A stretch of 64,000 nucleotides of DNA from Candidatus Eremiobacteria bacterium (GCA_963758295.1 CAVWUU010000004.1:1248001-1312000); one strand, 5' to 3'; shown: positions 2,739-57,229, numbered from the stretch's first letter. Numbers and translations are program-made. The notes: generated by a model from the letters alone, not told the origin.

Positions 2739-5700
2739 CTAGATCTTGACGGTGAGTTGGAAGTACGCCTGGAACGGATATCCGGCGAGTACGGGCACAT
2801 ACGGGTAGTTGAACACGTTGGGATACCCTGCCGTGCCGTTCGCCGCATCTGCCGGTGACTGACCGTAGAAATAGCCTGCTCCGGCGGTATTGAACGCTTC
2901 GCCCGGCGTCCATCCTAAATATGTGCTGTTGCCGGTAAACGCGTTGTAGTTTTGCGAGTACGAGCAAACCGCTTGATTCGGCTTGTAGGCAGCGCTCCAC
3001 GAGGTGGACGTACCGCCGAAGCAACGATTCAGAATGTTGGCCAGCGACACCGTGGCTGAAACCCGGGGCGAGAAGTCGTACGTTAACTGCGCGCCGAGAT
3101 TGAAGATCCACGGGTTCGTGAATTGGGCGACGCCGTCGAACCGGCCCGTTGCCGGATCCGGAATCGGGACTTGCCCCGCGCAGGTCTGGTAATCGGCCAG
3201 CTGTCCGCCGCCCGCAACGCCCGCTGCCGTTTGATTCTGCAAACAGCTCGTTGGGTCGATGCCGGGGATGAGAGCCGGTGAGCCATAGCGCGTTCCTTGC
3301 TGCAACACCGCGTTGAACGAACCTTGGAACTTGTTGTGCTTGTAAGCCAAGAAGCCCGCGAACACGTTTTGCGGAATTGCGGTTCCGAGATCGTTTCCTA
3401 CGCCGCCCAGATCCTGTGGGAAGTAGTTCGCGTAGGTCGGATACCATCCGTCGATCGGGAATTGCGCAAGGAATGTATTCAACGACGTATTCGGCAGCAT
3501 GTTGTAGTAGGGATTGACGACTGCCGCCGGATCCGCCGCGCAATTGGTAACGGGCGCACCTGCGTCGTAACAGGGTGCCGCACCGGTTGGATTCGTTGTC
3601 GCGTTGTACGCGTTGTTCGACGTCAGATTCCAGAACGTCGAGAGATTGCCGCGAAGCCCGGTTATAGCGTTTTGCCCGTTGATCAGGCTGTATTTTAGAC
3701 GCGCGTCCGTAAACGTGTACGAAAGCTGTCCGCTAACGCCGTTACGCGTCGGGTCGCCTTTTTGGACCTGGAATTCTACGCCTTCCGACCGCTGTGTGCC
3801 GGCGTTGAATCCGCCGGCCAAACCGCCCGGCAGAGAAACCGAGATCACCTGACTGGTCGTCCACCGGTAGAAAGGCGTGAGCTTCAGGCTCATGTCCGTT
3901 CCCTTGAAGTGGTGTTCCAGCGAGAGATCCCAGTTGTTCGAGTACTGAATCGGATTGTCGTGTATCGTCGACGTCAATCCGTTGTTGTAGTACTTCGAGT
4001 TGAAGACGTTCACCGCTTGACGGTAACCATCGACGTACGTCAATACTTGTTCCGCATACGTCGGGGTCGGTTGCGTGTACCGGCCGTACGTGAAACGAAC
4101 TACCGTGTCTGGATTGGCGGTGTACGTAAACCCGACACGCGGCGAAAACGTAGACTTGGTCAACGTCGAGCCGCCCGCTACGAGGCTAATTTCCGGAATG
4201 CCGTTCTGGCCCGGATGGTAGGTTTGCTCGCCGCGAACCGGATCGAACGGACACGTTCCGCCCGGGGCCGTCGTGGTGAAGCTCGGATATCCGAAACCCG
4301 CTGCGAATGGGTCGACGGATTGTCCTGGTGCTTGATTCTTGTTCGGCACTTGGAGCAAACCGGTCGGCGCGACGCAGGCCGTCGAGTTCACTTGATTTTG
4401 CCAGAAGATGCCTTCGGCATCGGTTGCGTTCGGAATGACGTATTGATACGACTCATACCGAACGCCGGCGTTGAGATCTATCCGGTCGTTGGGCCGGAAC
4501 TCGTCTTGCAGGGCAATGGTCGTGAATCGCGGCTGCACGCGGTTGATGTTGCTGAACGCACCGACGTTCTGAGCAATCGTCCAATCCGCGCCGGCTACCG
4601 GTGATGCGGGCAGTGCACCTGCACCAACGTTTAGCAGCGACGCCGCGGCGGTGCCGGTTGCCGAACTGTAGGCGCCTGCAAGCGCCGACAAGCAGGAAAC
4701 CGGTGTTCCCGCCGGGGCACCCGGCGCGTACGAAGCATCTATCGGCTTACCGCTCGAGCCAAGGTTTGCGGCGCCGGAGAAACATGCGCCCGAACCGTTC
4801 ATGAGGATGGCTGAAGGCGTGTTTGATGCGACCGTCGCCGCTTGACTGTTGTTCGCGCGTTGCCCGACCGACGCCGTGTAATTACCGGTGAACGTTATCA
4901 GGTTCTTCGCGTTGATTTGGTCGGCGGCTTGCAATTGCACGCCGCGCGTATGATAGGCAACCTCATAGTCCGGAGATGCGGGATTGAAGCCGTATCCGAA
5001 GACTGGGAAGTTCGAGTTGTCGTTGGGATTGTTTTGCAGCCAATCCGAATAGAACGTGTACCCGAAAAGCCGCACGTACGCGTTCGATCCGATATTTTTC
5101 GTGTACTGAATCTTCTCGATCGAGCCATTGTTGAACGCCGACGACTGCGTGTTGTTGCTTTGGCCGAAGCCGACGGGCCTGTTCAACGGCGAACTCGGGA
5201 AGTAGTACGGCAGCACGTGGCCGGCGGCGGTTGAAGCCGGAGCTCCGAAGCCGACACCGCTCAAGAACGCCGAATCGCCGTACGGTTCGGGACCTGGTGA
5301 GTTGGCGTAGATCGTGCAGCCGTTGCCGCTTCCGAACACAGACGCGAAGAAGTTCTCATACGCGCACAAGTTCGGCGTCGATCCGTTCCACTGGCCAAAC
5401 GCGGGAGCCGCCGGATTGGTCACCGGTGCCGGAAGCGGTGCGCCGGTGAGCAACGTCGACCAGAAGTTCCCGTACCCGGTTGGGCCGGCCCATCCGGATA
5501 ACGCACTTTCAACGTTGGTAGCACCCGTGCCGCCCGTGTTGAAGTTATCCCAACCGATCGAATGGTACGAGAAGTTGTCGAACAGGAGTTGAATGTCATC
5601 GCGACCCGCGTCTTTCTTGTGCGGAATTCCGACGTGGAAGTTGATGACATTTTCGCGATCCTGCGTTTGATAACCGTACGCACCAAAGCCGCCCGCGCCT

Positions 5701-6851
5701 ACGAGCGACGGGATGGGACTATAGGAAATACAGTTCGGCAGCGTCGTGCCGGTAAGGCCAAGGCCCGAAAGGCTTAAGCCCGGTGCACCGGCAGGTGCCG
5801 TTCCGTTCGCGAGACAGGTTGCCCACGGACCCGTGCTCGGAACGCCGGTCAGGAAGTTGTTCACCAAGACGTTCGAGTCTTGGGCATAGCCTTGGAAACC
5901 GAACTCATTGCTACCGTCCGGGTTCAGACTGGCGCCGTTGTTCGACGTGATGAACGCCGGAACGTTATTGGCGCCGCGAAGGCCGACGTACCAGGAGAAC
6001 AGACGGTCCGGAGTCGCACCGCCCGCTTCGAAGTCCAGCTTGTGGTAGAATGCCGGTGCTCCAACTGCGCCGGTTACGTCACCGTACCCCGGGAACGTAC
6101 CGGTCTTAATAACCTGGTTAATATATCCGCCAAGGGTTGCCGAAGCGCCGCCGGCGGGCGAGCCGCCCGTGTAGACTTCGGTTTGCGCGGATCCTAAGTT
6201 CGAGAGCGAATTCGCGCTGTAGTTATCGAACGCGCGATTCACCGGAACGCCGTCGAACTCGTATCCTACCTGGCCGTACGACGAGCCGCGAATGTAGAAT
6301 ACTTGTCCGAAATTGTATGATCCGACGCCTTCGTAGACGCCGGGTTGATTTGCGATCGCGGAGTACGCACTATCGAGATTGTATCCGCCCGCTGAGGTGG
6401 CCGTTTGTTTCGACGTCGCTTCGTTTACCGAATAGACGTCGGACGTCGTGCCGGGCTTCACTAGATTTCCCGCCGCACGAGCTGAGACTTTCGCGATCGT
6501 TTTCAGAGCTTTCGTGAGCTTGAACGCGAGCGTCAGGGTTTGGTCTGCGAAGACCGTCACGCCGGAGTAGGAGATCGGATTGTATCCGTCTTTCTCTACC
6601 GCGAGCGTATACGTGTCCGGAGCAAGGTTTAGAAACGAAAAGGAACCGCGAGCATCCGTTGTTGCCTGAGAGGTCTCGGAGGCCGAGACCGCTTTGACTG
6701 CAACGCCGGATACCGGGGCTCCGCTTTCATCCGTAACCGTACCGCTGATATTTCCCGTCGTGCCTGCCAGTGCCCATGTTACCTGGCTTAGCGCAAACGT
6801 GAAAATCAACGATGCGGTCGCGAACGAACGCAAGGGTCGATATTTCCACAT
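2739..6851 (-). CDS. TonB-dependent receptor-like outer-membrane protein with N-terminal carboxypeptidase-regulatory-like domain (receptor 1, 1370 aa)
   Basis: Signal peptide ending QVTWALA-GTTG; G.VTDESGAPV.G..V prealbumin-like domain; plug motif YIRG..DGVPVN..EVYTGG..LGGYINQVIKTG; barrel motifs LQDEFR, LNAGVRYE, FSPRVGFTY; C-terminus FQAYFQLTVKI. Confidence 0.85.
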   Translation of the reverse strand: MWKYRPLRSFATASLIFTFALSQVTWALAGTTGNISGTVTDESGAPVSGVAVKAVSASETSQATTDARGSFSFLNLAPDTYTLAVEKDGYNPISYSGVTVFADQTLTLAFKLTKALKTIAKVSARAAGNLVKPGTTSDVYSVNEATSKQTATSAGGYNLDSAYSAIANQPGVYEGVGSYNFGQVFYIRGSSYGQVGYEFDGVPVNRAFDNYSANSLSNLGSAQTEVYTGGSPAGGASATLGGYINQVIKTGTFPGYGDVTGAVGAPAFYHKLDFEAGGATPDRLFSWYVGLRGANNVPAFITSNNGASLNPDGSNEFGFQGYAQDSNVLVNNFLTGVPSTGPWATCLANGTAPAGAPGLSLSGLGLTGTTLPNCISYSPIPSLVGAGGFGAYGYQTQDRENVINFHVGIPHKKDAGRDDIQLLFDNFSYHSIGWDNFNTGGTGATNVESALSGWAGPTGYGNFWSTLLTGAPLPAPVTNPAAPAFGQWNGSTPNLCAYENFFASVFGSGNGCTIYANSPGPEPYGDSAFLSGVGFGAPASTAAGHVLPYYFPSSPLNRPVGFGQSNNTQSSAFNNGSIEKIQYTKNIGSNAYVRLFGYTFYSDWLQNNPNDNSNFPVFGYGFNPASPDYEVAYHTRGVQLQAADQINAKNLITFTGNYTASVGQRANNSQAATVASNTPSAILMNGSGACFSGAANLGSSGKPIDASYAPGAPAGTPVSCLSALAGAYSSATGTAAASLLNVGAGALPASPVAGADWTIAQNVGAFSNINRVQPRFTTIALQDEFRPNDRIDLNAGVRYESYQYVIPNATDAEGIFWQNQVNSTACVAPTGLLQVPNKNQAPGQSVDPFAAGFGYPSFTTTAPGGTCPFDPVRGEQTYHPGQNGIPEISLVAGGSTLTKSTFSPRVGFTYTANPDTVVRFTYGRYTQPTPTYAEQVLTYVDGYRQAVNVFNSKYYNNGLTSTIHDNPIQYSNNWDLSLEHHFKGTDMSLKLTPFYRWTTSQVISVSLPGGLAGGFNAGTQRSEGVEFQVQKGDPTRNGVSGQLSYTFTDARLKYSLINGQNAITGLRGNLSTFWNLTSNNAYNATTNPTGAAPCYDAGAPVTNCAADPAAVVNPYYNMLPNTSLNTFLAQFPIDGWYPTYANYFPQDLGGVGNDLGTAIPQNVFAGFLAYKHNKFQGSFNAVLQQGTRYGSPALIPGIDPTSCLQNQTAAGVAGGGQLADYQTCAGQVPIPDPATGRFDGVAQFTNPWIFNLGAQLTYDFSPRVSATVSLANILNRCFGGTSTSWSAAYKPNQAVCSYSQNYNAFTGNSTYLGWTPGEAFNTAGAGYFYGQSPADAANGTAGYPNVFNYPYVPVLAGYPFQAYFQLTVKI

Positions 6852-6950
6852 TGCATTAACTTTCTTCTTGCGAAGTACCGTGCAATTAGCGTGGCGCGCG
6901 AGGCGTCACAACATGAACATGCCACCCCGGTCGCTTACTCACCCGGCTAA

Positions 6951-6977
6951 TGGCAGCACTTTGACACAGCGGTGCCT
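6951..6977. promoter_or_regulatory. Candidate operator: three half-sites with 11-bp period, TGGCA-N6-TGACA-N6-TGCCT
   Basis: Read directly upstream of receptor 1; same spacing as the boxes at 7004, 8704, 50968 and 55794. Confidence 0.5.
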
Positions 6978-7003
6978 CAAGGAGTACTCAGAACGTGCGG
7001 AAG

Positions 7004-7019
7004 TGACAAGGAAGTGCCA
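7004..7019. promoter_or_regulatory. Candidate operator TGACA-N6-TGCCA
   Basis: On the minus strand it reads TGGCACTTCC-T-TGTCACTTCC, a near-perfect direct repeat with 11-bp period upstream of receptor 1. Confidence 0.55.
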
Positions 7020-7049
7020 TGTACATCTGCGTCGCGTCACACTCGCGTA

Positions 7050-7119
7050 CTATTGAGTTGCTCGTTGATTAGCCCTCAATAGAGTGTGGGGCGCTATAGC
7101 TTTTGCTACTATAACGCCC
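7050..7119 (-). terminator. Two adjacent hairpins just downstream of regulator 1 (possible terminator or mRNA-stability element)
   Basis: CTATTGAG...CTCAATAG (7050-7082) and GGGCGCTATAG...CTATAACGCCC (7089-7119); no clear U-tract on the minus strand. Confidence 0.35.
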
Positions 7120-7140
7120 TACCGTTTTATCTTTTTCGGC

Positions 7141-8682
7141 TTATTGCCCGATCCAACCGCGTCGTTCAGCGATTGGGACGAGTACCGCGGCAGCTTGGCG
7201 CGACGCGAGTTCGTCGAACGACGCGCGTTCGAGTCCGACATCCGCAAATTCGAACACGCCTATTTCGCGCCAGCGCGCGTTAGGCGGGGTGAAAAGATCA
7301 AGGGCAATTGAGAAATCCTTTGCTTTGACGTACCACCGCCACGCGCGCAAGTATCGCTCGCGTTCTTCTTCTGAATGGCCTTCCAGGCCATGCACGGCCG
7401 CCGCGGTGCAGTGGTTATAGGCGCTTACGGCGGCGTAGCCGCGCTCTTGGGCGACCGCCAGAGACTGCGCCACAAGATTCTTTGCTTCCATCAGCCGGTG
7501 TTGCGCCAAGAACTGTCTTGCCAGCACCGAGTCCATCATCGTCCGGTGCCATGAAGTTTCGGGCAGATCTCCGTAGGCGTCGCCCGCCGGCGCCGAAATG
7601 CCGGACACGAGCGCGATGCGGCGTTCCAAAATCGAAGCTTCCGCGCAAAGCCACACGTGATGCAGCGCGGCGATCCGAGCGGCGGCGGCGAGTTGCCGGG
7701 CTCGCCGTAAATCGCCTTCGTAACAGGCCGCAATTGCTGCCAACAGGCATAAATGCGCCGCGGCAACGGGATCGTGCCGCCGCTGCGCGCCCGCCATGTG
7801 TCTTTTGATTGCGCTTTCGAGATTCGCAAGACGGCCCGAATAACAGAGCACTTCGAGGGTGTGCACCGTCTCTTCGAGGTCTACGTCGGCGTTCGAACCG
7901 CTAACGTACGCGACGACGCGTTGAAGCGAATGTGCCGTACCGCTGCTGCGCGCGGCAAGGAAACGCGCTTGAGTAAGTTCGCGTTGAATCGCGCGGCGCA
8001 TGGCGGGATCGCTCACGAAACGCGAAGCCGCGTCCGACTTTCGCAGATCTTCCTCCGCGCCGGAGATATCACCAAAAAGGCATCGCTGCTGCGACCGTAA
8101 GGCAAAGGCAACGGATACGGACTGTCGCTCCGCCGTCTCGAAGACCGACGCGGGAATTTGCCGCGCCGTTTCGACGTATGCCTTGAGAGCCCGAATCGAT
8201 TCGAAGTCGGCCGACAGGTGCGGCGCGCTCGAAAACACTTCCAGCGCGCCTTCAGGATTCCAATCGACGAGTGTATCGAAAAGCGTTCCTAACGTATCGG
8301 TGGGCTCGGCCTGATAATTCAAGATTGCGCGAAGCTGCCCGGCGAGCATCTTGACGGCCCGTGCCCGATACCGGAAAAACTGCCGCAGCGAAAGGCCCAT
8401 CCGTGAAGCGACCTCGTTGAACGAAAGCGCGCCGTCCAGATCGGACTTCACGACCAGTTCGCTCAAGCGCGCACCCATATGCCCGAGATCTTTAAAAGTG
8501 AGATCGACGAGTTTTTTGAGTGCTTCACCAAGATTCGCACTGCCCGTGAGACGCTGCAGCTCATCAGCTATGGGATCGTCTTCGACACGGTCTGCACGTC
8601 GCGCGGCACCCAGCAGGCGCCGAACGTGGTGCTCGTCGATTGCTGCGGCCGGTCCGGCCGCCGGAGCATTTGCGTTTGCCAT
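7141..8682 (-). CDS. Putative transcriptional regulator with N-terminal HTH and TPR-like helical C-terminus (regulator 1)
   Basis: LSFNEVASRMGLSLRQFFRYRARAV HTH-like motif; Ala/Leu-rich helical repeats; visibly homologous to 49328-50869 and 55883-57229. Confidence 0.65.
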   Translation of the reverse strand: MANANAPAAGPAAAIDEHHVRRLLGAARRADRVEDDPIADELQRLTGSANLGEALKKLVDLTFKDLGHMGARLSELVVKSDLDGALSFNEVASRMGLSLRQFFRYRARAVKMLAGQLRAILNYQAEPTDTLGTLFDTLVDWNPEGALEVFSSAPHLSADFESIRALKAYVETARQIPASVFETAERQSVSVAFALRSQQRCLFGDISGAEEDLRKSDAASRFVSDPAMRRAIQRELTQARFLAARSSGTAHSLQRVVAYVSGSNADVDLEETVHTLEVLCYSGRLANLESAIKRHMAGAQRRHDPVAAAHLCLLAAIAACYEGDLRRARQLAAAARIAALHHVWLCAEASILERRIALVSGISAPAGDAYGDLPETSWHRTMMDSVLARQFLAQHRLMEAKNLVAQSLAVAQERGYAAVSAYNHCTAAAVHGLEGHSEEERERYLRAWRWYVKAKDFSIALDLFTPPNARWREIGVFEFADVGLERASFDELASRQAAAVLVPIAERRGWIGQ

Positions 8683-44873: not shown

Positions 44874-47800
44874 ATGAAACGACATTCGTTCAGGCGTCTG
44901 ATCACCGGACTCGTAATGAGCGCGCTGTGCGCAGGCCAGGTAACATGGGCACTGGCCGGTACGACGGGCTCTATTTCGGGCACGGTTACAGACGATTCTG
45001 GCGCAGCCGTTGTGGATGCATCCATAACAGCCCTTTCATCGTCCCAAAACGCATCGGCAAAAACCGACTCGCATGGAAGCTTCACCTTTCTCAACCTCGC
45101 ACCGGACACGTATACGGTCTCGATTGAGAAGAGCGGATACAATTCTATCTCCTATGCCGGCGTTACGATCTTTGCAGATCAGAACCAGACGCTCGCGTTT
45201 AAGCTGTCGAAAGCGCTAAAAGAGATTGCAAAGGTCTCGGCGCGCGCTGCCGGCAACCTGGTAAAGTCCGGAACCACGTCTGACGTTTACTCCGTTAATC
45301 AGGCTACGGCAAAGCAAGTTGCGACGTCTGCCGGCGGATACAACCTGGACAATGCCTACTCGGCAATCGCCAATCAACCCGGCGTTTACGAGCAAGTCGG
45401 AAATTACAATTTCGGCCAGGTCTTCTATATCCGCGGGTCCAGTTATTCGCAAACCGGCTACGAGTTCGACGGCGTTCCCGTTAACCGGGCGTTTGACAAT
45501 TACCAGTCAAACTCGCTCTCGAACCTCGGCGCTGCGCAAACGGAAGTCTACACGGGCGGATCGCCGGCCGGTGCTTCTTCCGCAACGCTCGGCGGATACA
45601 TCAATCAAGTTATCAAGACCGGAACCTACCCCGGATACGGTGACGTAACAGGAGCCGTCGGCATTCCGGCCTTCTATCATAAGCTGGATCTCGAAGCCGG
45701 CGGCGCGACGCCGGACCGGTTGTTTTCCTGGTACGTCGGCTTGCGCGGCGCAAACAATACGCCCAACTTCATCGACAACCAGAACGGAAACGAGCTCAAC
45801 CCCGATGGCAGCAATAAGTACGGGTTTCAGGGCTTCTCGAATAACAACGTTTACAATACTTACGAGAACTTCGTAGGTAGCGCGAGCTCAGCGGGGCCAT
45901 GGCCGACATGCCAAAACGGCGTCGCACCCGCGGGCTCGCCGAAGCTAGTCTATGACGGCGGCTTGGGTTTGGCCGGCGATCCGATCTGCGCGTCGTATGC
46001 GCCGCTTGGCTCCCTCGTCTCGGGTGCCGGTTTCGGCGCTTACGGTTACCAAACAGAAGACCGTGAAAACGTCGTAAACTTCCACTTCGGCATCCCGCAT
46101 CACAAAGATGCCGGCCGCGACGACGTTCAGGTCCTATTCGACAACTACTATTACCACTCGATTGGCTGGGATAACGCAAATACCAACGGCGGCTATTCTC
46201 TGATGGAACAGGGATTGACCGGTTGGGCAGCTCCCGGCGGTTATCTCGATCAAATCTTCGGTGGGGGCACATCGGCAACGGTTCCTCAATATCCCGCGGC
46301 AAACACACCGAACATCTGCGCCTTTGAATATGCCTACATGCTCGTTGGCGTAGGAACGGGTTGCGCCCAAAGCGGAGAATCGCCATTTGCTTGGGGCGAC
46401 GGCTTGTTGCTCCAAGGCGTTGGGTTCGGGACGGCGGCGACGTCGGCAAAAGGTGCCGCCAAACCGTACTTCTTCCCGAGTTCGCCTCAGAATCGCGCCG
46501 TTGCGGCGGGCTTGAGCCCGAACCAGGTATCGGGAACGAATAACAACGGCTCGATTTTCAAGCTGCAGTACACGAAGAATATCGGTTCCAACGCGTACGT
46601 GAAGCTCTTCGGGTACTCGTTCTATTCGGATTGGCTGCAAAACAACCCGAACGACGGCGGCTTCTGGCCGATCTACGGCTATGGCTTTAACGCTTCATCG
46701 CCGGATTACGAAGTCGCCTACCATACACGAGGCGTCCAAATGCAAGCCGCGGACCAAATCAGTTCGCAGCACCTGATTACGTTCACGGGCAACTACACCG
46801 CATCGACCGGTGCCCGCAGTAATAACAGTCAGGCCGGCGTTGTAGCCTCACAATCGCCCACCGCCATTCTGATGAATTCGGCGGGGCAATGCTACAGCGG
46901 CGTTACGAACGGCACCGCTACGCGACCGCTCGACGGATCGTACGCCGCCGCGGCGGCAGCCGGTACACCCGTCTCCTGCTTATCACCGCTCGCCGGCATC
47001 GGCGGACCGACGGGTGCTTATTCGTCGGCGACTGCCGTGACCGGAACGCTCGATAACGTTAACAACGGCACTCTAGCCGCGGCTCCGGCGAATGCTCTCG
47101 CCGCGGGTGCCGACTGGACCGTTGCGCAAGACATTCTGCCGAAGACGAACCGAAACTCGGTAGCGCCGCACTTTAGCTCGCTTGCGTTGCAAGACGAATG
47201 GCGCCCGAGCGACAAGATCGACGTGAACCTAGGCGTGCGGTTCGAACAATACCAGTATCAGATTCCGATCTCGAGCGATCCGGAGTCCGTATTCTGGCTC
47301 AACACGATCAATGAAACCGCCTGCGTCGCGCCGACCGGGCTCATACAAGCAGGGAGCCGCGATAATTCTCCGAGTGGAAGCGTTCAATCCATTGCGGGAC
47401 TTTCCGGCTATCCAAATTATCTGACCACCCTACCCGGACAGGCATGTCCGTTTGATAACACCCTGCGCCAGCAGACGTATCACCCGGGACAAAACGGCAT
47501 TCCGTTGCTCAGCCTTGGTGCTACGCCGACGCTGACTCACTCGACGTTCTCGCCGCGTATTGGCGCAACGTACACGCTGAATCCGGATACGGTGCTGCGC
47601 TTCACCTACGGGCGCTACACGCAGCCGACTCCTACGTATGCCGAGCAAGTGCTCACGTACGAAGATGGATATCAGCAAGCACGGAACCTTTACGGCTCGA
47701 AATACTACAACAACGGTCTCGCGTCGACGATTCATGACAACCCGATCCAGTTCTCAAACAACTGGGACTTGTCGCTTGAAAAACACTTCAAAGGTACGGA

Positions 47801-48944
47801 CATCAGTTTCAAGGTGTCGCCGTTCTATCGGTGGACGACGGACCAAGTTATTAGTGTCTCCCTGCCGGGCGGCCTTAACGGCGGCTTCAATGCGGGAACG
47901 CAGAAGTCGCAAGGCGTCGAGCTCCAAATCCAAAAGGGCGACCCGACGCGAAACGGCCTTTCGGGACAGATCTCGTACACGTACACCGACGCGAAGCTCA
48001 AGTACGCGATGATCAACGGCAACAACTCCGTTACCGGATTGCTTGCCAACCTCGATCAATTCTGGGCGTTGACTTCGAATAACAAGTACAATGCGACGAC
48101 GAATCCGACGGGCTCGGCTCCGTGTTACGACGCCGGCGCTCCGGTAATGAACTGTGCGAGCGACCCTCATGCAGTCGTTAACCCGTATTACAACCTGCTA
48201 CCGAACACCACAAAGACTCAGATGAACTCGCAGTATCCGGTGGACGGTTGGTACGAAACGTACGCGAACTTCTTCCCGTCCGACGTCGGCGGCGGCTTCG
48301 GCCTCGACGACTATGCGACGGCGATTCCGCGAAACGTGTTCTCGGGCTTCCTCGCGTACAAGCACAACAAACTGCAAGCATCACTGAACGCGACGCTGCA
48401 ACAAGGTACTCGATACGGCGCTCCGACGCAAATTGTCGGGTTGGACCCAACGACGTGCGCCGAGAACCAAGGCGATGCCGGCGTCGTTACGGGATCCCAG
48501 CTTGCGGACTACCAGAGCTGCGGTAACTCCGTCGTCATCCCAAATCCCACAACCGGTAAATTCGACGGAATTGCACAGTATACGAATCCGTGGATCTTCA
48601 ACCTCGGCGGCCAACTGTCGTATGACATCTCGCCTCGAGTGTCGGCCACGCTTTCGATGGCAAACCTACTGAACCGATGCTTCGGCGGTTCAAAGACCGC
48701 GTGGAGCACGGCGTTTGCACCGAACGGCGGCATCTGTGGATACGCTTACAATTCGAGCGCGTATCTTGGATGGTCGCCGGGCGAAGCATATAACACCGCC
48801 GGCGCTGGATTCTTCTACGGACAAAGTCCGCACGATCCGGCAAACGGCACGGCGGGCTACCCGAACCTGTTCAACCAGGCTTACACACCGCTTCTGGGCG
48901 GCTATCCGTTCCAAGCATACTTCCAACTAACGGTGAAGATCTAG
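44874..48944 (+). CDS. TonB-dependent receptor-like outer-membrane protein (receptor 2, 1356 aa), close paralog of receptor 1
   Basis: Same architecture and long identical stretches with 2739-6851, for example LGGYINQVIKTG, YTKNIGSNAYV, PDYEVAYHTRGVQ, GYPFQAYFQLTVKI. Confidence 0.85.
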   Translation: MKRHSFRRLITGLVMSALCAGQVTWALAGTTGSISGTVTDDSGAAVVDASITALSSSQNASAKTDSHGSFTFLNLAPDTYTVSIEKSGYNSISYAGVTIFADQNQTLAFKLSKALKEIAKVSARAAGNLVKSGTTSDVYSVNQATAKQVATSAGGYNLDNAYSAIANQPGVYEQVGNYNFGQVFYIRGSSYSQTGYEFDGVPVNRAFDNYQSNSLSNLGAAQTEVYTGGSPAGASSATLGGYINQVIKTGTYPGYGDVTGAVGIPAFYHKLDLEAGGATPDRLFSWYVGLRGANNTPNFIDNQNGNELNPDGSNKYGFQGFSNNNVYNTYENFVGSASSAGPWPTCQNGVAPAGSPKLVYDGGLGLAGDPICASYAPLGSLVSGAGFGAYGYQTEDRENVVNFHFGIPHHKDAGRDDVQVLFDNYYYHSIGWDNANTNGGYSLMEQGLTGWAAPGGYLDQIFGGGTSATVPQYPAANTPNICAFEYAYMLVGVGTGCAQSGESPFAWGDGLLLQGVGFGTAATSAKGAAKPYFFPSSPQNRAVAAGLSPNQVSGTNNNGSIFKLQYTKNIGSNAYVKLFGYSFYSDWLQNNPNDGGFWPIYGYGFNASSPDYEVAYHTRGVQMQAADQISSQHLITFTGNYTASTGARSNNSQAGVVASQSPTAILMNSAGQCYSGVTNGTATRPLDGSYAAAAAAGTPVSCLSPLAGIGGPTGAYSSATAVTGTLDNVNNGTLAAAPANALAAGADWTVAQDILPKTNRNSVAPHFSSLALQDEWRPSDKIDVNLGVRFEQYQYQIPISSDPESVFWLNTINETACVAPTGLIQAGSRDNSPSGSVQSIAGLSGYPNYLTTLPGQACPFDNTLRQQTYHPGQNGIPLLSLGATPTLTHSTFSPRIGATYTLNPDTVLRFTYGRYTQPTPTYAEQVLTYEDGYQQARNLYGSKYYNNGLASTIHDNPIQFSNNWDLSLEKHFKGTDISFKVSPFYRWTTDQVISVSLPGGLNGGFNAGTQKSQGVELQIQKGDPTRNGLSGQISYTYTDAKLKYAMINGNNSVTGLLANLDQFWALTSNNKYNATTNPTGSAPCYDAGAPVMNCASDPHAVVNPYYNLLPNTTKTQMNSQYPVDGWYETYANFFPSDVGGGFGLDDYATAIPRNVFSGFLAYKHNKLQASLNATLQQGTRYGAPTQIVGLDPTTCAENQGDAGVVTGSQLADYQSCGNSVVIPNPTTGKFDGIAQYTNPWIFNLGGQLSYDISPRVSATLSMANLLNRCFGGSKTAWSTAFAPNGGICGYAYNSSAYLGWSPGEAYNTAGAGFFYGQSPHDPANGTAGYPNLFNQAYTPLLGGYPFQAYFQLTVKI

Positions 48945-49002: not shown

Positions 49003-49047
49003 CTCATCGCTTGACGCCTTGGAAGGCGACGCTGATGCCGCTAGCGC

Positions 49048-49326
49048 CTAGCGGCGAAGGTTTGCATCGACGTCTCGCATTACGGCTTGTACGAAAGGCA
49101 CAGCGGAGCTCGGTACGATGAGCACTTCCAGATCGGACGCGGCTGCCACGCGAAGCAACGTTGAGGTTTTCAAGTCGGCGCCAAGTTCGATGTGCGAGAT
49201 TGAAGTAGGCGACATCCCTACTGAGGCGGCGACCTCTTCTTGCGAGCGACCAACTTTTTCGCGGGCCTTTCGAAGCGCCTCCCCGATTCCGGCGTCCGCC
49301 AAAATGCGAGCTTTTGAATACGGCAC
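49048..49326 (-). CDS. XRE family HTH transcriptional regulator (HipB-like)
   Basis: IGEALRKAREKVGRSQEEVAASVGMS..ISHIE.G...STL; starts 1 bp after the regulator 2 stop codon. Confidence 0.8.
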   Translation of the reverse strand: MPYSKARILADAGIGEALRKAREKVGRSQEEVAASVGMSPTSISHIELGADLKTSTLLRVAAASDLEVLIVPSSAVPFVQAVMRDVDANLRR

Positions 49327-49327
49327 C

Positions 49328-50869
49328 CTAAGATACGATTGTCAACGCGCGCAAGCGCTGGTATCCGGCCGATCGAATTATCGCCCGTACCGTTATCCCC
49401 GCCGCCGAGGCGAAACGCCGGACGAATGATGCCTGCTCTTCTAACGGGATAAGTACGCTCAGGAATCGGCCGAATTCGCTTAGATGCGAAATTTCGCGAG
49501 CGAGGACCCCGGTTACGGTGCGGTGCTCGAGCGAGACGGCGTTGATCTTGTCCATAATATCTTCAGATACGGAAGCGGCAGCAGCATCGCGGCCGTGGAC
49601 GCGCAACAATACCGCATTGAGCAGCGCCGGGAGAACGTCAATCAGCTCGCTTGAGGCACCACACTCGCTATCCGGTACCAGCGTTAGATAGATCGAGCCT
49701 AGCTCCGGGTAAGTTCGCTCGCAAAACCATTGCGTAGTCGCGGTCAGCAGGGAACCGAACTGAAATAGGTCTCGAGAGATATATGCGTTCGCTCCACATG
49801 CAGCGAGTACGCTAAGAGCCCGAAGTGCCCAAACGTCTCGTTCTGCGCCGTTAGACCCGCTGTAAGAAGCTGCGACGATCGCTGCAGCGTGCGTGGCAAC
49901 CGGCAAAGATTTTTCCTGGATGCTGGCGGCATATAATTCAAGCGCGCCGGCGCGGGCGGACTGCATTTGTGCGACCCGAATATCCTGGCGAGCTTCAACC
50001 AGGTGAAGCCACTCGGCCGGTGCGGCATTGACCACGGAAGCCGGGCACGGTATGCCTCGCACGCTGCAGATACGAGCACGTATGACAGCCGCAGCCGCAT
50101 TCATTTCATCCGGCTTCGGAACCGCATTTTCGATGATATCGCAGATGCGGTCCGCGTCGTTCCATTGCCCAACGGAAAATGCGAGGCAGGCCTTTACCAA
50201 TAGAGCCTTTCGCCAAAGTTCAGCATAGGGCAGGGGCAGCGTTTCAAAGACTGCTTCTAGCGCTTTAGATGCCTCTTGAGACCTGCCGGCATAGACGTCG
50301 GCCTCCGCAAGCATGATACGAAGCTCGACGCGGGCTTGGTATGGCAGAAAATGTTGAAAGCCCGCAATTCGGGACAGATCGTTTTCCATTGCCGGCCCAT
50401 CCCCAAGCCGGCGGTTCAACTGAAATGATTCTTTTACGGAGTTGAAGAGTTCGTTATACCAAGACCCTCTCGAGTGCGCCGGTGCTAGATCCGCCGGCTC
50501 ACGGCGGTCGATCTTGTAACGAGGCTGCACGCCGTCGAGTAGCGAGTTCAAATACGAGGCAATCACCATGATTGCGCGTTGGCGCTTACGGAAGTAACTT
50601 CGCACGCTAAGACCAAGCGCTTCAGCAGCATTTCCGTGCGAGTCGGGGCGCTCGACACTGCCCGCGAATACGACGCTCCGCAACTCATCTACGGCGGCAG
50701 ACGGCTGCAGCGCGCGAAACGCGCCGTCTGCCGCCAAAATGACGGCATCCCGCCGAGTTTTCGTCGAAAAAAACTTCTGCAGGTGTCCGGCCAGCTCGCT
50801 TCTCGCGAGTATGCGGTCGTCTTCCAAGTAGCGCAATGCGAACCGGACGTTTTCTTCGCTTACGACCAT
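49328..50869 (-). CDS. Putative transcriptional regulator with N-terminal HTH and TPR-like helical C-terminus (regulator 2)
   Basis: VRFAL..L, AAEALGLSVRSYFRKRQRAI; TPR-like LAEADVYAGRSQEASKALE. Confidence 0.6.
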   Translation of the reverse strand: MVVSEENVRFALRYLEDDRILARSELAGHLQKFFSTKTRRDAVILAADGAFRALQPSAAVDELRSVVFAGSVERPDSHGNAAEALGLSVRSYFRKRQRAIMVIASYLNSLLDGVQPRYKIDRREPADLAPAHSRGSWYNELFNSVKESFQLNRRLGDGPAMENDLSRIAGFQHFLPYQARVELRIMLAEADVYAGRSQEASKALEAVFETLPLPYAELWRKALLVKACLAFSVGQWNDADRICDIIENAVPKPDEMNAAAAVIRARICSVRGIPCPASVVNAAPAEWLHLVEARQDIRVAQMQSARAGALELYAASIQEKSLPVATHAAAIVAASYSGSNGAERDVWALRALSVLAACGANAYISRDLFQFGSLLTATTQWFCERTYPELGSIYLTLVPDSECGASSELIDVLPALLNAVLLRVHGRDAAAASVSEDIMDKINAVSLEHRTVTGVLAREISHLSEFGRFLSVLIPLEEQASFVRRFASAAGITVRAIIRSAGYQRLRALTIVS

Positions 50870-50983: not shown

Positions 50984-51137
50984 ATTTCGTTAAGCGCCAT
51001 TGCAAGAAATGAACTGCAACGTCGCTCGAACATGCTCCTAGTTGACGCATTAACACGTCATAACATACCGCTGCTGCGTGCGTTGTATCTTCGCCGCTCC
51101 GAATAACAAAGCGCCTCGCTCAAGCGATATAAAGACT

Positions 51138-52080: not shown

Positions 52081-55000
52081 TTAGAGCTTTATCCTCGCTT
52101 CAAGGAAGAAGTTGAAAGGAAGCGTTGTCTGGTTGAAGTTTCCAGCGGCAGTATTCGTGTTGGCAGCGCCAAAGTACGCGCCGTACGGATACTGAATTAC
52201 CCGTTGGAAGTCGGCTACCGTTGCCGGTGGATTGTACAGGTTTCCGACCGGAAGCGCCTGTCCGCCGGTATTCAGGATGTTATACGAGCAGACCCGATGG
52301 TCATCAACAGTCCAGGCAGCTTTCGTCCCTCCCCAGCAGGTGTCTAAAATATTCGCGAAAGTTCCCACGATGGTCACTTTGGGCGAAACTTGGTAACTCA
52401 GTTGGAGATTCGCAGCAAGCTGATTGGGCTGAACGAATGCGCCGATGCCATCGAACACGCGCGAGTACGGATTGGGAATCGGAATGGTTCCGCACTTGGT
52501 AGCGTCATATGCGCTGCCCCCGGCTGCGCCGTACGGATACCGTGGATCGTTTGTCGGAGCGGTGCCTAAAGCAGCACAGGTTGATGGATTGACGCCGAGC
52601 GTCGTCTCCGGTTCGCCATAGCGTGCGCCGCCCTGGAACTGAAGCGACGGCGTTATTGCGAAACGATCGGCCTTATAGTTAAGGACGATTGTCGCGACGT
52701 AGGGAGCGCCGTAGGCAATAGCCGACGATTGCGGAGGTCCGGGGAAGATCGTAAGGGTCGGAAAGTCCTGATTCGGATCGACTAATGCTTGCAATGGCGC
52801 GTTATAGTACGGGTTCGCAACGGCTCCCGCCGCCGAACAAGCCGAAGCCGCTCCGTTCAGGTAGCACGGTGACCCACCGCCGGCTTTCGTGAATGCATTG
52901 TAGTTTTGGATGTCGCTATTGACGCCAGTAACGACCGTCGATCCGTTACTTAGCGTATCGTACTTGATTCTGGAATACGTATACGCAAAGGACAGCAACC
53001 CCGAAAAGCCGTTTCGGCTAAAGTCGCCCTTGTTGAGCTGGAACTCAAAGCCTTTGCTTGTTTGTCTGCCGACATTGATGCCGGAAACGAACGCCGTCTT
53101 CTGATCGAGGAAGAACTGTTGAACTTGGTCTTTGGTTTGGCGAAGGAACGGCGTGAGCTTAAATGAGGTGTCCGAACCGTGAAACCGGTGCTCGAGAGAA
53201 ATATCGAAGTTCTGAGATGTCGGCGGACGGATCGCGTGCTGTGCGGGCGACGTGAACCCGAACGAGTAGAACACTGCCGATCCGCCTAGCGTGAACGGCG
53301 TATCTTCTTGCGCAGTGTTGTATTGTTCGAAGGCTGCGTTCGGCGGCTCTGCATACCGGCCGGCTGAGGCCCGCAATACCGTGTCCGGGGTAAGCGTGTA
53401 TGTTGCGCCGAATCGCGGCTGCAAAATCTGGTAGGTGCTAACGCCAAAGACGTTCTGCATATTGGCGTTCGTGTAGCCGCTGGGACATGGGTTGCTTGGC
53501 AGCAAGCCAAGAGCCGCTTTATCCACCGGTGCGCCAACAGCGTTAACGCAATTGTCGAGGTTCCATGCGCGATACCAGAAAGACCGCGCGGGATCGTTCG
53601 TGCCCGTGTCTTGTCCTAGGAATTGGAACTCGTCGAAGCGCAGACCAAGGTTAAAGAGCAGCTTATCGCTGAGGTGCATTTCATCCGTCAGCGAGCCGGC
53701 CGTAAATCTCGGCGTAACCGCGTTGTAGGTTGCCCAGTGAGAATTCTCTGCGATGAGCCATGTACATGGGCCCGATGCACCGCCGGGAATATTGCAAGAA
53801 GGCGCGAGCGCGGGAACGGTTCCCCCTGAGATGCCTCCCCACGTAGCAAAGTTTGCTCTATTGCCGTTCGCGTCACCGCTTGGGTTACACGACACTTCCG
53901 CGCCGGCAGCCGTGAAGCAATAGCCGCTTAAGGGGTCATTGGCGTTCACCATCACGACGCCCCGCGACCGGGCCCCTCCGGCATTCAACATTTGCGTGTT
54001 GTTATCGCGAGTTGAGTTAGATGTCGTGTACGAGCCCTGCAACGATAGCAGGTTGTGCTCGTTTAACTGCTTGCTAAACTGCGCGCTAACGCCGCGCGTG
54101 TGCGACACAACGTCGTAGTCGGCGGGGCAGCACGCTATATAGCCTTGATCGAGACTGTTTGCGCCATTCTGGTCCCAATCACTGAAGTAGGAATATCCGT
54201 AGATTCGCAGATATGCGTCGCTTCCAAAGTTCTTCTGATACTGAAGCTTTACGATCTCTTGCTGATTTTGCAAACGATCTTCGAGACTTCCGGGGATCTG
54301 GCCGCCGAATTGATGGGCCGGCACCCCGGGGAAGAAGTATGGACTAACGCATGAGGAGCTCAGGGCCGTCGTCGTCGTTCCAACGCCGCCGCATGTCCAC
54401 TGATAGCCGTCGGCAAATGTCGGCAGGTTTGCCGCACCGCCGTACGCCGCAGCGCCGCCGGCGTCATCAGGTGACGTATACGTAGGATTATTTAGGTATC
54501 CACTATCCCAGAGCAATTGAATATCGTCGCGGCCGCCGTCGTGGTGATGAGGAATGCCGAAGTGGACATTCATGACCACGTCGCGATCCATGATGCGGTT
54601 TTCAAATCCGTACTGGTACGGCAGCATCGAGAAGCACCCCGTAGGTGCTAGCGTAGCGGGGCAATTTCCGGTTCCCGCCGGGATAGCGGCAAGCGGACCG
54701 GCGAATTCGGATACGTCGGCGCCATTACTTCCATTGATATAGCGCATACCCTGATCGTAGCCGCCGATGCCGACGTAGTACGAAAAGAGGCGATCCGGCG
54801 CAGCGCCGCCGGCCTCTATGGAGGCCTTGTGATAATAAACGGGTGTGCCGATTCCGAGAGCACCGGTTGCAAAACCGGGACTCGTTCCGGTCTTGATGAC
54901 TTGATTGATGAATCCCGCGAGCCCCTGGCCTTCGGAATTCGCCGGAGACGCGCCGGTGTAGACTTGCAGTTCTTGCTGTCCAAGCGACGATGCGGCGCCG

Positions 55001-55638
55001 GAGGGATAATTGTCGAAGGACCGGTTTACGGGAACACCGTCGACTTCATAGCCGACTTGGTCGTAGTCGCCGCCGCGAATGTGCACCGTTTGAAAATAGC
55101 CGGTTTGATTCAGCGGGACGAACGCGCCCGGTACCGTGGCAATTGCCGAATACGCGCTGTTTAACCCACCACCGCCGCCGACCGCCGAGACTTTGTCTTG
55201 AACGGTAGAGTTGATGGAATAGACATCAGCCGTTGTTCCGCTTTTCACCAAACTTCCCGCGGCCGTCGAAGTGACCTTCGCGATAGTTTTCAACGCGCTG
55301 GTCATTCGTAAAGCGATCGTCTGGGTGGCGTCGGCAAATACTGCTACGCCCGGCTCACTAATCGGCTGTAAGCCTTCTTTTTCAACGGAAACGGTATACG
55401 TGTCCGGAGAGAGTGAGATGAACGTGAAATGTCCCGCCGCGTCCGTCGCCGTTGTGGCGGATTGCGCGGGGCTTGTCGCGGTAACCTTTGCGTTTGCAAT
55501 AGGAGTTCCGGATTCAGATTGAACGACCGTACCGCTCATGCGACCGGTAGTGCCAGCCAGTGCCCATGTTACCTGACTTAGCAAACTTCCCGATAGCAGA
55601 AGCGCCGCGATCGCAATCTTTATGCGATATCGTGGCAT
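52081..55638 (-). CDS. TonB-dependent receptor-like outer-membrane protein (receptor 3, 1185 aa)
   Basis: SQVTWALAGTTG; HIRGG..DGVPVNRSFDNY..LAGFINQVIKTG plug; NLGLRFD, QPRFGATY; C-terminus FNFFLEARIKL; AAGGAGG ribosome-binding site. Confidence 0.85.
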   Translation of the reverse strand: MPRYRIKIAIAALLLSGSLLSQVTWALAGTTGRMSGTVVQSESGTPIANAKVTATSPAQSATTATDAAGHFTFISLSPDTYTVSVEKEGLQPISEPGVAVFADATQTIALRMTSALKTIAKVTSTAAGSLVKSGTTADVYSINSTVQDKVSAVGGGGGLNSAYSAIATVPGAFVPLNQTGYFQTVHIRGGDYDQVGYEVDGVPVNRSFDNYPSGAASSLGQQELQVYTGASPANSEGQGLAGFINQVIKTGTSPGFATGALGIGTPVYYHKASIEAGGAAPDRLFSYYVGIGGYDQGMRYINGSNGADVSEFAGPLAAIPAGTGNCPATLAPTGCFSMLPYQYGFENRIMDRDVVMNVHFGIPHHHDGGRDDIQLLWDSGYLNNPTYTSPDDAGGAAAYGGAANLPTFADGYQWTCGGVGTTTTALSSSCVSPYFFPGVPAHQFGGQIPGSLEDRLQNQQEIVKLQYQKNFGSDAYLRIYGYSYFSDWDQNGANSLDQGYIACCPADYDVVSHTRGVSAQFSKQLNEHNLLSLQGSYTTSNSTRDNNTQMLNAGGARSRGVVMVNANDPLSGYCFTAAGAEVSCNPSGDANGNRANFATWGGISGGTVPALAPSCNIPGGASGPCTWLIAENSHWATYNAVTPRFTAGSLTDEMHLSDKLLFNLGLRFDEFQFLGQDTGTNDPARSFWYRAWNLDNCVNAVGAPVDKAALGLLPSNPCPSGYTNANMQNVFGVSTYQILQPRFGATYTLTPDTVLRASAGRYAEPPNAAFEQYNTAQEDTPFTLGGSAVFYSFGFTSPAQHAIRPPTSQNFDISLEHRFHGSDTSFKLTPFLRQTKDQVQQFFLDQKTAFVSGINVGRQTSKGFEFQLNKGDFSRNGFSGLLSFAYTYSRIKYDTLSNGSTVVTGVNSDIQNYNAFTKAGGGSPCYLNGAASACSAAGAVANPYYNAPLQALVDPNQDFPTLTIFPGPPQSSAIAYGAPYVATIVLNYKADRFAITPSLQFQGGARYGEPETTLGVNPSTCAALGTAPTNDPRYPYGAAGGSAYDATKCGTIPIPNPYSRVFDGIGAFVQPNQLAANLQLSYQVSPKVTIVGTFANILDTCWGGTKAAWTVDDHRVCSYNILNTGGQALPVGNLYNPPATVADFQRVIQYPYGAYFGAANTNTAAGNFNQTTLPFNFFLEARIKL

Positions 55639-55695: not shown

Positions 55696-55793
55696 CTAGC
55701 GAGCTGCTGTCGTGAACAATCAACCACTCTTCTTAGTACGAAACGCTAATATAACTTGGTAAACCGGGGCGATGATTCAATTGCATTTAAAAC

Positions 55794-55809
55794 TGCCATT
55801 CATCTGCCA
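55794..55809. promoter_or_regulatory. Candidate operator TGCCA-N6-TGCCA (CTGCCAT direct repeat, 11-bp period)
   Basis: CTGCCATTCATCTGCCAT upstream of receptor 3. Confidence 0.55.
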
Positions 55810-55882
55810 TCGACGGCGCGTCACTTTTACGCCGCAGCCGGCGTGCAATCGACATTAAACCGGTTCTCAAAATCGCGGAGGG

Positions 55883-57229
55883 CTAAGCGACGCGACTCTT
55901 TCGAAGAGCGAGTACAGCAAGGCCATGAACTACCGCGCCGTTTACCGCAGTAGACGGTTCATCGATCGCATCAAAGCATAAGGCATCATCACAGAGCGAA
56001 AGAATAGCCCGGGCACGGCTTAGCTCGCCAAGGAGAGCGAGGCACCACATTTGAGGTATCCGATAGCCGCGTTCTTCGGCGGTCGGCAGGATGCGTCGCG
56101 CTTCCGCGCGCGCGCGCTCTATATCGCCCCGCGTAAAGAGGTTCCGTGCCCACGTGACTGCGAGCATTGTCTCGCCATAGGACCGCAGCGGCCCCTCGTA
56201 CGAAACGACGCCAAGATTTGCACCGCGAAAGGCTAGCCGGTTCTTGAGAGCAATAACGTCCGCGTTGATCCGCGGAACGAAGGCCGTACAAAGTTCCAGG
56301 CTCTTTACGAGTTGCGCCGCTTCGTTGGCGTTACCGGCGCAGAAGAGCGCTTCCGCCAACGCCAGCATCGCGCTGCATTGCAAGCTGATATCGCTTAGCC
56401 GGCATGCCAGCGTTGCAGCGGCTCGCAATTTCCCAAGGCCGTCCGTTGCATGAAAGAACCGAAAAGACGCTTCGGCTTCGCACAAAGCGGAGAGCGCCTC
56501 CGCCCTCCGGCTAGCCGTTGCATTGTTCCGAAGCTGCTTTAGCGCTTCGCCGCACGCGTCGGAATCCGAACGATAGCGGGCTATCAAATAATCGTGGTAA
56601 GCCAGCTCTGCGAGGACATCCGAGCGATGTTCGTTATCGTGAAAGTGCACCCGGCGCCGGATGGACTCAGCCAACTCGGTTGCGTCCGCGCTCTTCCCAG
56701 CATTTTCCAGTACGCCGGTTAGTCGCGCGCGAAGCCGTTCCACCTCGCCGCTTTTTGCGGCATTTGGCCGAAGATTAAGCGCGTGCAATTCGAGCGCTAT
56801 TCCCGGATCGATCGATTCCATGGATCGAGCCAGCACCTGGGTCAGCGGTTCGTCCTTTGATTGAGCGAGCAGATCGCGCACTCCGCGCACGATGATGTGC
56901 ACGGCGTTCGATCGGTATCGGTAAAACTGTCGCGTCGAGAGGTTCATTGAAGCCGCAATTGCAGCGTGCGTCTCCATCCCTTCCATGTCGGTCCGGCGCA
57001 AAAGATCGAAGAGGCGCCGCCCTTCCCGGCCATACTCGCTAAAGATGCGTCGCAAAAACAACATCACCGCGTCATGGCAATTTGCTGCGCCAAAGTGATC
57101 CTTTATCAGCAAGGCAAGCGCCTGACTTTCCAAGGACTTCGGCCTGCTGAGCGATCGGAGCAGCCGGCGAACTTCCCGATCGGGAACGGCGAGCGGCTGT
57201 GCGTCTTGCGTTTGAGTGTGCGCGTCCAT
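55883..57229 (-). CDS. Putative transcriptional regulator with N-terminal HTH and TPR-like helical C-terminus (regulator 3)
   Basis: VRRLL, THAAIAASMNLSTRQFYRYRSNAV; LAEALFCAGNANEAAQL; AEERGY matches AQERGY of regulator 1. Confidence 0.65.
   Translation of the reverse strand: MDAHTQTQDAQPLAVPDREVRRLLRSLSRPKSLESQALALLIKDHFGAANCHDAVMLFLRRIFSEYGREGRRLFDLLRRTDMEGMETHAAIAASMNLSTRQFYRYRSNAVHIIVRGVRDLLAQSKDEPLTQVLARSMESIDPGIALELHALNLRPNAAKSGEVERLRARLTGVLENAGKSADATELAESIRRRVHFHDNEHRSDVLAELAYHDYLIARYRSDSDACGEALKQLRNNATASRRAEALSALCEAEASFRFFHATDGLGKLRAAATLACRLSDISLQCSAMLALAEALFCAGNANEAAQLVKSLELCTAFVPRINADVIALKNRLAFRGANLGVVSYEGPLRSYGETMLAVTWARNLFTRGDIERARAEARRILPTAEERGYRIPQMWCLALLGELSRARAILSLCDDALCFDAIDEPSTAVNGAVVHGLAVLALRKSRVA

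Follow-up and report, generated by a model that had tools for sequence, protein, structure and literature searches.

Three genes for TonB-dependent receptors in a 64,000-nucleotide stretch of a Candidatus Eremiobacteria genome (contig 4, 1248001-1312000; the window) are each accompanied by a gene for a putative regulator of one family, and neighbourhood counts and trees revealed that this pairing is real and conserved. The regulator family is undescribed and expanded in the class Eremiobacteria. We favour, with confidence somewhat better than even, the reading that the three proteins are ligand-gated one-component regulators of the adjacent receptor gene. The genome is a metagenome-assembled genome (MAG) of an uncultured soil bacterium, 3.03 Mb in six contigs and 82% complete. 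An initial annotation had arranged six open reading frames (ORFs) in three modules, the regulator being upstream and co-oriented in modules 1 and 3 and convergent in module 2. All coordinates, strands and orientations were borne out by ORF calling and translation:

2739..6851, minus strand: receptor 1 (P0004, 1370 amino acids (aa)), CarboxypepD_reg, Plug and TonB-dependent beta-barrel domains, 14 cysteines
7141..8682, minus strand: regulator 1 (P0001, 513 aa), predicted N-terminal helix-turn-helix (HTH) domain, then a predicted tetratricopeptide repeat (TPR) superhelix; upstream of receptor 1
44874..48944, plus strand: receptor 2 (P0005, 1356 aa), same domains as receptor 1, 15 cysteines
49328..50869, minus strand: regulator 2 (P0002, 513 aa), N-domain as in regulator 1, C-terminal part helical and seemingly unrelated; convergent with receptor 2
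52081..55638, minus strand: receptor 3 (P0006, 1185 aa), same domains as receptor 1, 18 cysteines
55883..57229, minus strand: regulator 3 (P0003, 448 aa), same N-domain and a helical C-terminal domain; upstream of receptor 3

The three modules lie within 55 kb of each other, and the gaps between the reading frames of regulator and receptor are 236 bp in module 1 and 245 bp in module 3. By their domain content the three large genes are TonB-dependent receptors, with a Plug followed by the barrel. CarboxypepD_reg and the TonB_dep_Rec barrel exceeded the Pfam cut-offs in all three, the barrel (PF00593) with 44.4, 69.2 and 60.4 bits (cut-off 27). The Plug (PF07715, cut-off 23.9) scored 28.9 bits in receptor 2 and 24.4 in receptor 3; receptor 1 fell marginally below with 23.5 bits and is 67% identical to receptor 2 over the full length. 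Receptor 3 is 46% identical to receptor 1 in the first 429 aa and 33% in the remainder. Their description as cysteine-rich was a generous label, since 14 to 18 cysteines amount to 1.0-1.5% of the residues, mostly as nearby pairs. Receptors of this family number 12 in the window's genome and up to at least 29 in one relative among the matches listed, the best 150 of 388 rows; this tally includes the unpublished genomes G004, G013, G024 and G036. Neither an adjacency count nor a statement about sequences rests on these four genomes, and adjacency was measured on fetched flanks instead.

The three regulators are homologous over the N-terminal 100-136 aa only, a domain of about 125 aa (the N-domain). 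Identities in this part are 30% between regulators 1 and 3 (E 8e-15), 29% between 1 and 2 (E 7e-6) and 27% between 2 and 3 (E 1e-4). The motifs quoted by the initial annotation, VRRLL/VRFAL, the HTH strings and AQERGY/AEERGY, are present in the translations; the alignment of the ERGY stretch of regulators 1 and 3 is weak (E 0.014). No Pfam or NCBIfam model reached its threshold in the three proteins, none names the family, and the literature surveyed (titles and abstract openings) held no description of it or of receptor regulation in Eremiobacterota, so that the family is undescribed, as had been supposed. Full-length orthologues of regulator 1 (seven close ones in a word-indexed protein search) share 51-81% identity. 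The database version of regulator 1 (P0007, 445 aa) spans 87% of the 513-aa ORF and appears to start at Met69, thus lacking the first 68 residues. As these residues are conserved in orthologues and paralogues (e.g., L24), the 513-aa ORF is preferable as a gene model.

A profile of the three N-domains retrieved 62 rows from 41 genomes, including G004. Fifty-eight rows were in relatives, and for 46 of them (E <= 2.8e-5) flanks of up to 10 kb on each side were fetched; the 12 rows left out were one in G004 and 11 weaker ones. Genes in the relatives were longest-frame calls, and a link was a family receptor within 1.5 kb. Eighteen of the 37 full-length homologues (>=400 aa) in 40 genomes of relatives were linked, or 15 of 34 loci when tandem regulators count once, and one of nine short forms. 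In the window's own genome three of the four clear family members adjoin a family receptor. For the background, the own genome has 710 frames of 400-700 aa; 10 of them (about 1.4%), including the three regulators, are no further than 1.5 kb from a family receptor, and the enrichment is roughly 35-fold. The adjacency of regulators and receptors is thus not chance. Most pairs have the regulator upstream and co-oriented, five are divergent and three convergent, including module 2. The link persists through such changes of orientation: each window module has a counterpart with both partners orthologous in the relative G003, where module 2 is again convergent (L034) and module 3 is flipped, its regulator (53% identical) being divergent from the orthologous receptor. 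The relatives are not independent; the linked pairs include non-orthologous ones, four in genome G014 and three in the window's genome, and three families of the class have such pairs.

A maximum-likelihood tree of 40 full-length proteins, calculated without the metagenome orthologues P0009-P0013 for which there was no context, was split with 100% support in the Shimodaira-Hasegawa-like approximate likelihood ratio test (SH-aLRT) into a side with 20 of 24 proteins linked to a receptor and a side with one of 16. One of the four unlinked proteins on the receptor side sits at a contig end. Because the linkage labels had been set after the maps were seen, an out-of-sample test was made on fresh genomes, with the best hit in each of 20 further genomes; of 22 family frames, two shorter than 380 aa after trimming were dropped. 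Among the 20 new rows, four of nine on the receptor side were linked, three of these at 1.5 kb or less and one at 1.65 kb, compared with none of 11 on the other side. Both sets pooled gave 24 of 33 versus one of 28, with a split support of 99%. The counts show that one clade of the family is adjacent to receptors.

The family as a whole is larger. The word-indexed search with its seven orthologues had understated it; an exhaustive profile search with the N-domain yielded 3059 clusters at 50% identity (E <= 0.001), 703 of them at E <= 1e-10. Most clusters have 430-630 aa, and the named ones are "hypothetical protein" of Candidatus Eremiobacteraeota. An N-domain match (E <= 1e-8) was present in 80 of 201 genomes sampled over the phylum, all in three families of the window's class (66/113, 2/3 and 11/15 genomes), and in none of the 69 genomes of 18 other families in the same sample. 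Genomes carry up to 11 copies.

The initial annotation had read an HTH into the N-terminal motif. Predicted structure and structure searches agree, and point to the sigma-70 region-4 type. The AlphaFold2 model of regulator 1 was built on an alignment of 45 family members, that of its N-terminal 140 residues on 46 sequences. The full-length model is all-helical with a mean predicted local distance difference test (pLDDT) value of 87.7 and a predicted template modelling (pTM) score of 0.74; the N-domain model reached a pLDDT of 85.8. In the prediction, aa ~10-122 (window ~8317-8653) form a two-helix extension and a four-helix HTH, and residues ~50-122 resemble sigma-70 region 4 (Z 6-7.3). Sigma factors or their region 4 filled 17 of the top 20 rows of an all-against-all structure search with the N-domain, where the chains of four of the 17 were identified by us. 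Examples are CnrH (Z 7.3, root-mean-square deviation (rmsd) 2.5 over 67 residues), region 4 of SigR (Z 7.2) and BldN (Z 6.7, rmsd 1.8 over 59 residues). All sigma matches cover model residues ~35-125, and in full-length sigma factors region 4 only. The rows also included LuxR-type domains, of EsrB (Z 5.9), DesR (Z 5.4) and EL222 (Z 4.8). Foldseek retrieved SigE region 4 on DNA (template modelling (TM) score 0.66-0.73, probability 0.97). A profile search against the PDB listed FliA, an RNA polymerase sigma factor (3hug), SigF and SigL with E 0.03-0.9. Below threshold, Pfam gave Sigma70_r4_2 in 14, Sigma70_r4 in six and HTH_23 in 22 of the 46 N-domains. In the ESM Atlas the N-domain matched unnamed clusters only, one of them with Sigma70_r4 on 13% of its members (score 0.88), which is taken as a lead.

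Neither GerE (PF00196) nor the region-2 family Sigma70_r2 matched the three regulators at E <= 0.1 (for Sigma70_r2, only two short helices precede the region-4-like part in the model), and HTH_3 and HTH_31 had no match in them. GerE, HTH_3 and HTH_31 were also not among the 25 families, of 44, that were listed for the 46 N-domains at E <= 1. Weak matches to HTH_Tnp_1, HTH_23 and HTH_29 had raised a transposase reading; it was rejected, as a transposase catalytic domain is lacking and the remainder of the protein is modelled as TPR. The N-domain HTH is thus predicted to be of the sigma-70 region-4/LuxR structural type, and the two-domain HTH-TPR architecture is predicted with good confidence.

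The C-terminal parts of the regulators comprise 320-390 aa. In the model of regulator 1, residues ~124-506 form a TPR superhelix whose best structural match is an APC subunit, followed by domain III of MalT (1hz4: Z 24.2, rmsd 4.3, 337 of 366 residues aligned at 9% sequence identity; Foldseek TM 0.60 on the target). The peptide receptors AimR (Z 20.3), Rap (Z 20.0) and NprR (Z 17.6) also matched. Domain III of MalT binds the inducer, and the TPR domains of AimR, Rap and NprR bind a signalling peptide. By structural similarity only, the modelled domain is a TPR sensor of the MalT-domain-III type. AAA, NB-ARC or STAND matches to a nucleoside triphosphatase (NTPase) were absent from the three regulators, and the model of regulator 1 has no beta-sheet. 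The statement of the initial annotation that receiver, ATPase and anti-sigma domains are missing was confirmed for the three proteins by a Pfam scan and the model of regulator 1; the scan also found no kinase domain. A predicted HTH combined with a predicted TPR sensor, without phosphotransfer domains, is the generic layout of a one-component regulator. The earlier proposal of a one-component receptor regulator is thus supported in part and has to be narrowed, the receptor link being limited to one clade of a larger family.

Outside this clade the neighbours are different. Members often adjoin subtilase (S8) proteins of 1200-1500 aa, sometimes together with a secretin (L058, L059, L065, L067, L069, L071), and others adjoin genes for beta-propellers (NHL, Vgb_lyase), BNR/sortilin proteins or S10 peptidases. 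The fourth family member of the own genome (contig 4 1362525-1364087, L078:8525-10087) is situated outside the window, some 50 kb past its end, and a 1498-aa S8/fervidolysin-like protein (L078:1611-6104) is encoded 2.4 kb downstream of it. These neighbours of the sister clade speak for a general family of local regulators in which the receptor link is the property of one clade. Longer relatives of 845-867 aa carry the N-domain, an AAA_16/NB-ARC STAND NTPase and a MalT-like TPR region (P0055/P0166, P0091, and L086:9800-12400 in G112); of these, one bears the label Verrucomicrobiae and another is from the bacterial family of the window's genome. They tie the regulator family to MalT and the STAND proteins, so that it does have relatives among known systems. 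The short regulators may derive from such proteins and lack their NTPase; alternatively, the N-domain may represent a mobile module for DNA binding. Nine short forms of 119-192 aa among the fetched loci carry the N-domain as a stand-alone protein (L039:7953-8387, L041:9697-10173, L043:9818-10177, L044-L047, L066 and L068), and the 191-aa database cluster representative P0016 has the N-domain followed by DUF1272. The proteins at L044-L047 have a similar length to P0016 (191-192 aa); at L044 and L047 the short gene has a BrkB-family gene on one side and a gene for a PAS histidine kinase on the other.

The non-coding DNA between regulators and receptors contains candidate elements. For module 1 the window was aligned with three orthologous regions.

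6915..7025, minus strand: conserved non-coding block upstream of receptor 1, candidate operator or promoter (four-region alignment)
7086..7122 (approximate), minus strand: GC-rich hairpin directly after the regulator-1 stop, read from the alignment
55790..55830 (approximate), minus strand: direct repeat ATGGCAG-N4-ATGGCAG upstream of receptor 3, candidate operator

Upstream of receptor 1, three TGGCA/TGCCA elements ~169, 104 and 73 nt before the ATG are invariant in all four regions, and an inverted repeat GTGACGC...GCGYCAC (in the window with the half GCGCCAC) lies nearer to the start. The two ATGGCAG repeats stand ~172 and 161 nt before the ATG of receptor 3; in front of them lies AAAAGTGACG, a sequence that the G003 orthologue conserves. 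We regard these upstream elements as leads and candidate operators. GTGACGC was found in only five of 23 receptor upstream regions. A sigma-54 promoter reading of TGGCAC-N5-TTGTCA upstream of receptor 1 was rejected because the -12 GC is not conserved in the orthologues; Sigma54_DBD/rpoN was not detected in the own, 82% complete genome. Three of the four regions share the hairpin after regulator 1, L033 among them with compensatory changes, while the shorter L035 region lacks this stretch. The hairpin was not flagged by a terminator scan, and it probably separates the transcripts of regulator and receptor. A strong hairpin with a T-run at 48945-49010, directly after the receptor-2 stop, has an equivalent in G003 and is likely the terminator between the convergent genes. 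Rfam identified no riboswitch or other family in the window. Intergenic ORFs of >=20 aa in modules 1 and 3, inspected by eye for genes of secreted peptides, had no signal-peptide-like N-terminus.

The small XRE gene reported for module 2 is real (HTH_3, E 5e-11), and its DNA is conserved at the orthologous locus L034. A plus-strand ORF at 49118-49429 is its shadow.

49048..49326, minus strand: small XRE-type HTH gene (92 aa), starting directly after the regulator-2 stop and co-oriented with regulator 2

An AraC-family regulator gene at 51078-52010 is convergent with receptor 3, 70 bp from its stop, and could also bear on the control of that receptor. Other family receptors of the own genome stand next to regulators of other types. 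A 912-aa LAL-type regulator (AAA_16 and GerE, L072:3943-6681) precedes one of them, with an 861-aa SBP_bac_5 protein before the regulator and an S9 peptidase after the receptor; the two flanking genes give a hint of peptides as substrates. A PucR-type regulator, which looks split over two frames (L073:3602-5381), precedes another. Both cases fit a habit of substrate-specific local control. Two further receptor paralogues are broken over several frames (contig 6 125643-129418; contig 1 516435-520062) and represent either pseudogenes or MAG assembly errors. Titles and abstract openings yielded nothing on substrates or control of these CarboxypepD_reg receptors. A second type of HTH and TPR protein, with an OmpR-type Trans_reg_C domain followed by TPR repeats, is encoded at 60353-61693 of the window. 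Such proteins recur in the lineage (L041:10182-11750, L049, L077:6888-8195, L080:7408-8892, L086:13242-14675), several times a few genes from members of the regulator family.

In the mechanism we propose, the regulators would be cytoplasmic and a small ligand would bind to the TPR domain, most likely the substrate of the neighbouring receptor or its breakdown product. Binding would change the oligomeric state or free the HTH, which would then bind to repeated elements ~70-190 nt upstream of the adjacent receptor gene (the candidates contain ATGGCA) and switch this gene, most likely on. As each paralogue combines its own very divergent sensor with its own receptor, the three modules would represent three substrate-specific uptake switches. 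Ligand sensing, element binding and receptor induction are putative steps.

Several observations weigh against this proposal. All Z values of the N-domain are below 8, a level which the search tool describes as common for helical models, and all its Pfam matches are below threshold. Only three of the 12 receptors in the own genome have such a regulator as neighbour, and nine of the 33 members on the receptor side lack a family receptor within 1.7 kb. The genes of module 2 converge, and the extra XRE gene could be the real DNA binder there. The trees of regulators and receptors, whose comparison had been suggested by the initial annotation, agree at shallow depth and disagree further down: receptors 1 and 2 are sisters while their regulators belong to different subclades, and the four regulators of G014 form one clade with receptors from two old clades. 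This implies that partners were re-assorted or that regulators turn over faster. The 23 receptor upstream regions have no motif in common; ATGGCA/TGCCAT was present in 10 regions, of which many are orthologous, versus 10% of random 300-bp windows. Finally, R100, R104 and R106 of the recognition helix are present in >=90% of the 46 members aligned. Such a near-invariant recognition helix across paralogues is unexpected for regulators with private operators.

A bolder variant of the proposal, tentative and on the whole unlikely, regards the family as the equivalent, in diderms, of the RRNPP peptide receptors, serving nutrition and not quorum sensing. The TPR domain would bind a fragment (peptide or other) that was imported by the neighbouring receptor or, in the sister clade, released by the S8 protease, and the HTH would induce the same gene. 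The regulators resemble the RRNPP(A) proteins (AimR, NprR, PlcR, Rap) in the order of an N-terminal HTH and a TPR sensor without phosphotransfer domain. They differ in that their HTH is predicted to be sigma-4-like and not of the XRE type, that no convincing propeptide ORF was recognised by eye in the intergenic regions of modules 1 and 3, and that the host belongs to a diderm phylum and the partner gene encodes an outer-membrane importer. RRNPP systems have been described in Firmicutes and their phages. If the variant is true, each pair is a self-contained import-and-sense loop, and the expansion to as many as 11 copies per genome maps the substrate range of Eremiobacteria.

It is improbable, in our judgement, that the proteins regulate other targets, such as secreted hydrolases, and adjoin receptors because both share fast-evolving, paralogue-rich regions or because the regulators control themselves. 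The S8 protease, beta-propeller and other neighbours of the other half of the family would fit this explanation, as would the receptor-side members without a receptor neighbour, the deep disagreement of the trees and the crowding of all three window modules. However, it has to account for the enrichment in three families and in non-orthologous pairs, for the repetition of the link in the out-of-sample genomes and for the conserved non-coding blocks between regulator and receptor.

We consider it decidedly improbable that the sigma-4-like domain acts via RNA polymerase without any private operator, the protein being a ligand-gated co-factor or anti-factor and the receptor one of several targets. 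In this case the domain would mimic or replace sigma region 4, or would bind an anti-sigma-like partner or the beta-flap, like PhyR or the sigma appropriators. The nearest structures are region 4 of extracytoplasmic function (ECF) sigma factors, several of them in complex with the anti-sigma factor (4cxf, 3vep, 6dxo, 5wuq, 4nqw), the near-invariant DNA-reading helix is what a common partner would impose, and the 23 upstream regions revealed no paralogue-specific operator. However, sigma region 2 is absent, the regulators have no conserved partner gene beside them, and a tight one-to-one adjacency to receptors across orientations is what local regulators typically show. Most known regulators with a LuxR-type or sigma-4-type HTH use it for direct DNA binding, which also counts against an action via the polymerase.

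That the proteins are not transcription factors at all is very improbable; they would then be cytoplasmic scaffolds or chaperones built of TPRs, or what remains of STAND proteins from defence or signalling, with N-terminal helices that resemble an HTH. Relatives with a STAND NTPase exist (P0055, P0091, L086), and in the two that were scanned with PADLOC, P0055 and L086, the NTPase part matches mad8 weakly; the HTH evidence is all predicted or below threshold. Yet the HTH region is the best-conserved one in the alignment of the family, a conserved HTH-like domain is not explained by a chaperone role, and the N-domain is also found by itself or joined to other small domains, in the manner of DNA-binding modules. 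A reading as a defence system was discarded, the three window proteins having no PADLOC match.

Ligand-gated local regulators of the adjacent receptor, the reading which we favour, would be a variation on known one-protein sensor-regulators; the family itself is undescribed. The regulators are most like MalT in the sensor and like the RRNPP receptors in the order of HTH and TPR, and are members of neither group. The TPR-like superhelix matches domain III of MalT over its whole length, the HTH is predicted to be of the sigma-4/LuxR structural type, relatives with NTPase and TPR_MalT-like parts exist, and a true LAL regulator precedes another receptor in the own genome. In contrast to MalT and the LAL regulators, the three proteins have no NTPase and no GerE match at the thresholds used, and their HTH is N-terminal, whereas the LuxR HTH of MalT is C-terminal. 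ECF42 proteins are ECF sigma factors with a C-terminal TPR extension. They share with the regulators a sigma-4-type domain followed by a TPR domain that would control it. However, the regulators have only two short helices in front of the region-4-like part and cannot act as a sigma factor, since region 2 is missing.

TonB-dependent receptors are known to be controlled by FecI/FecR pairs of ECF sigma and anti-sigma factors, Fur, hybrid two-component systems, SusR in Bacteroidota, AraC/LacI regulators and riboswitches. A dedicated regulator beside the receptor, with presumably substrate-specific induction, is common to such systems and the modules described here. The differences are the missing anti-sigma partner, receiver and kinase, the lack of an Rfam riboswitch in the window, and a sensing step that would take place in the cytoplasm via the TPR domain.

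The predicted structures show a sigma-4-type HTH placed N-terminally to a TPR sensor, with no NTPase in the protein, and an annotation gap is filled: the N-domain of the 3059 clusters is named neither in Pfam nor in NCBIfam. A regulator family with a putative ligand-binding domain offers a handle on the substrates and the control of the receptors of these bacteria. Pairs of regulator and promoter are testable in E. coli, for which a culture of the organism is not needed, and each regulator's ligand should indicate which substrate the partner receptor takes up.

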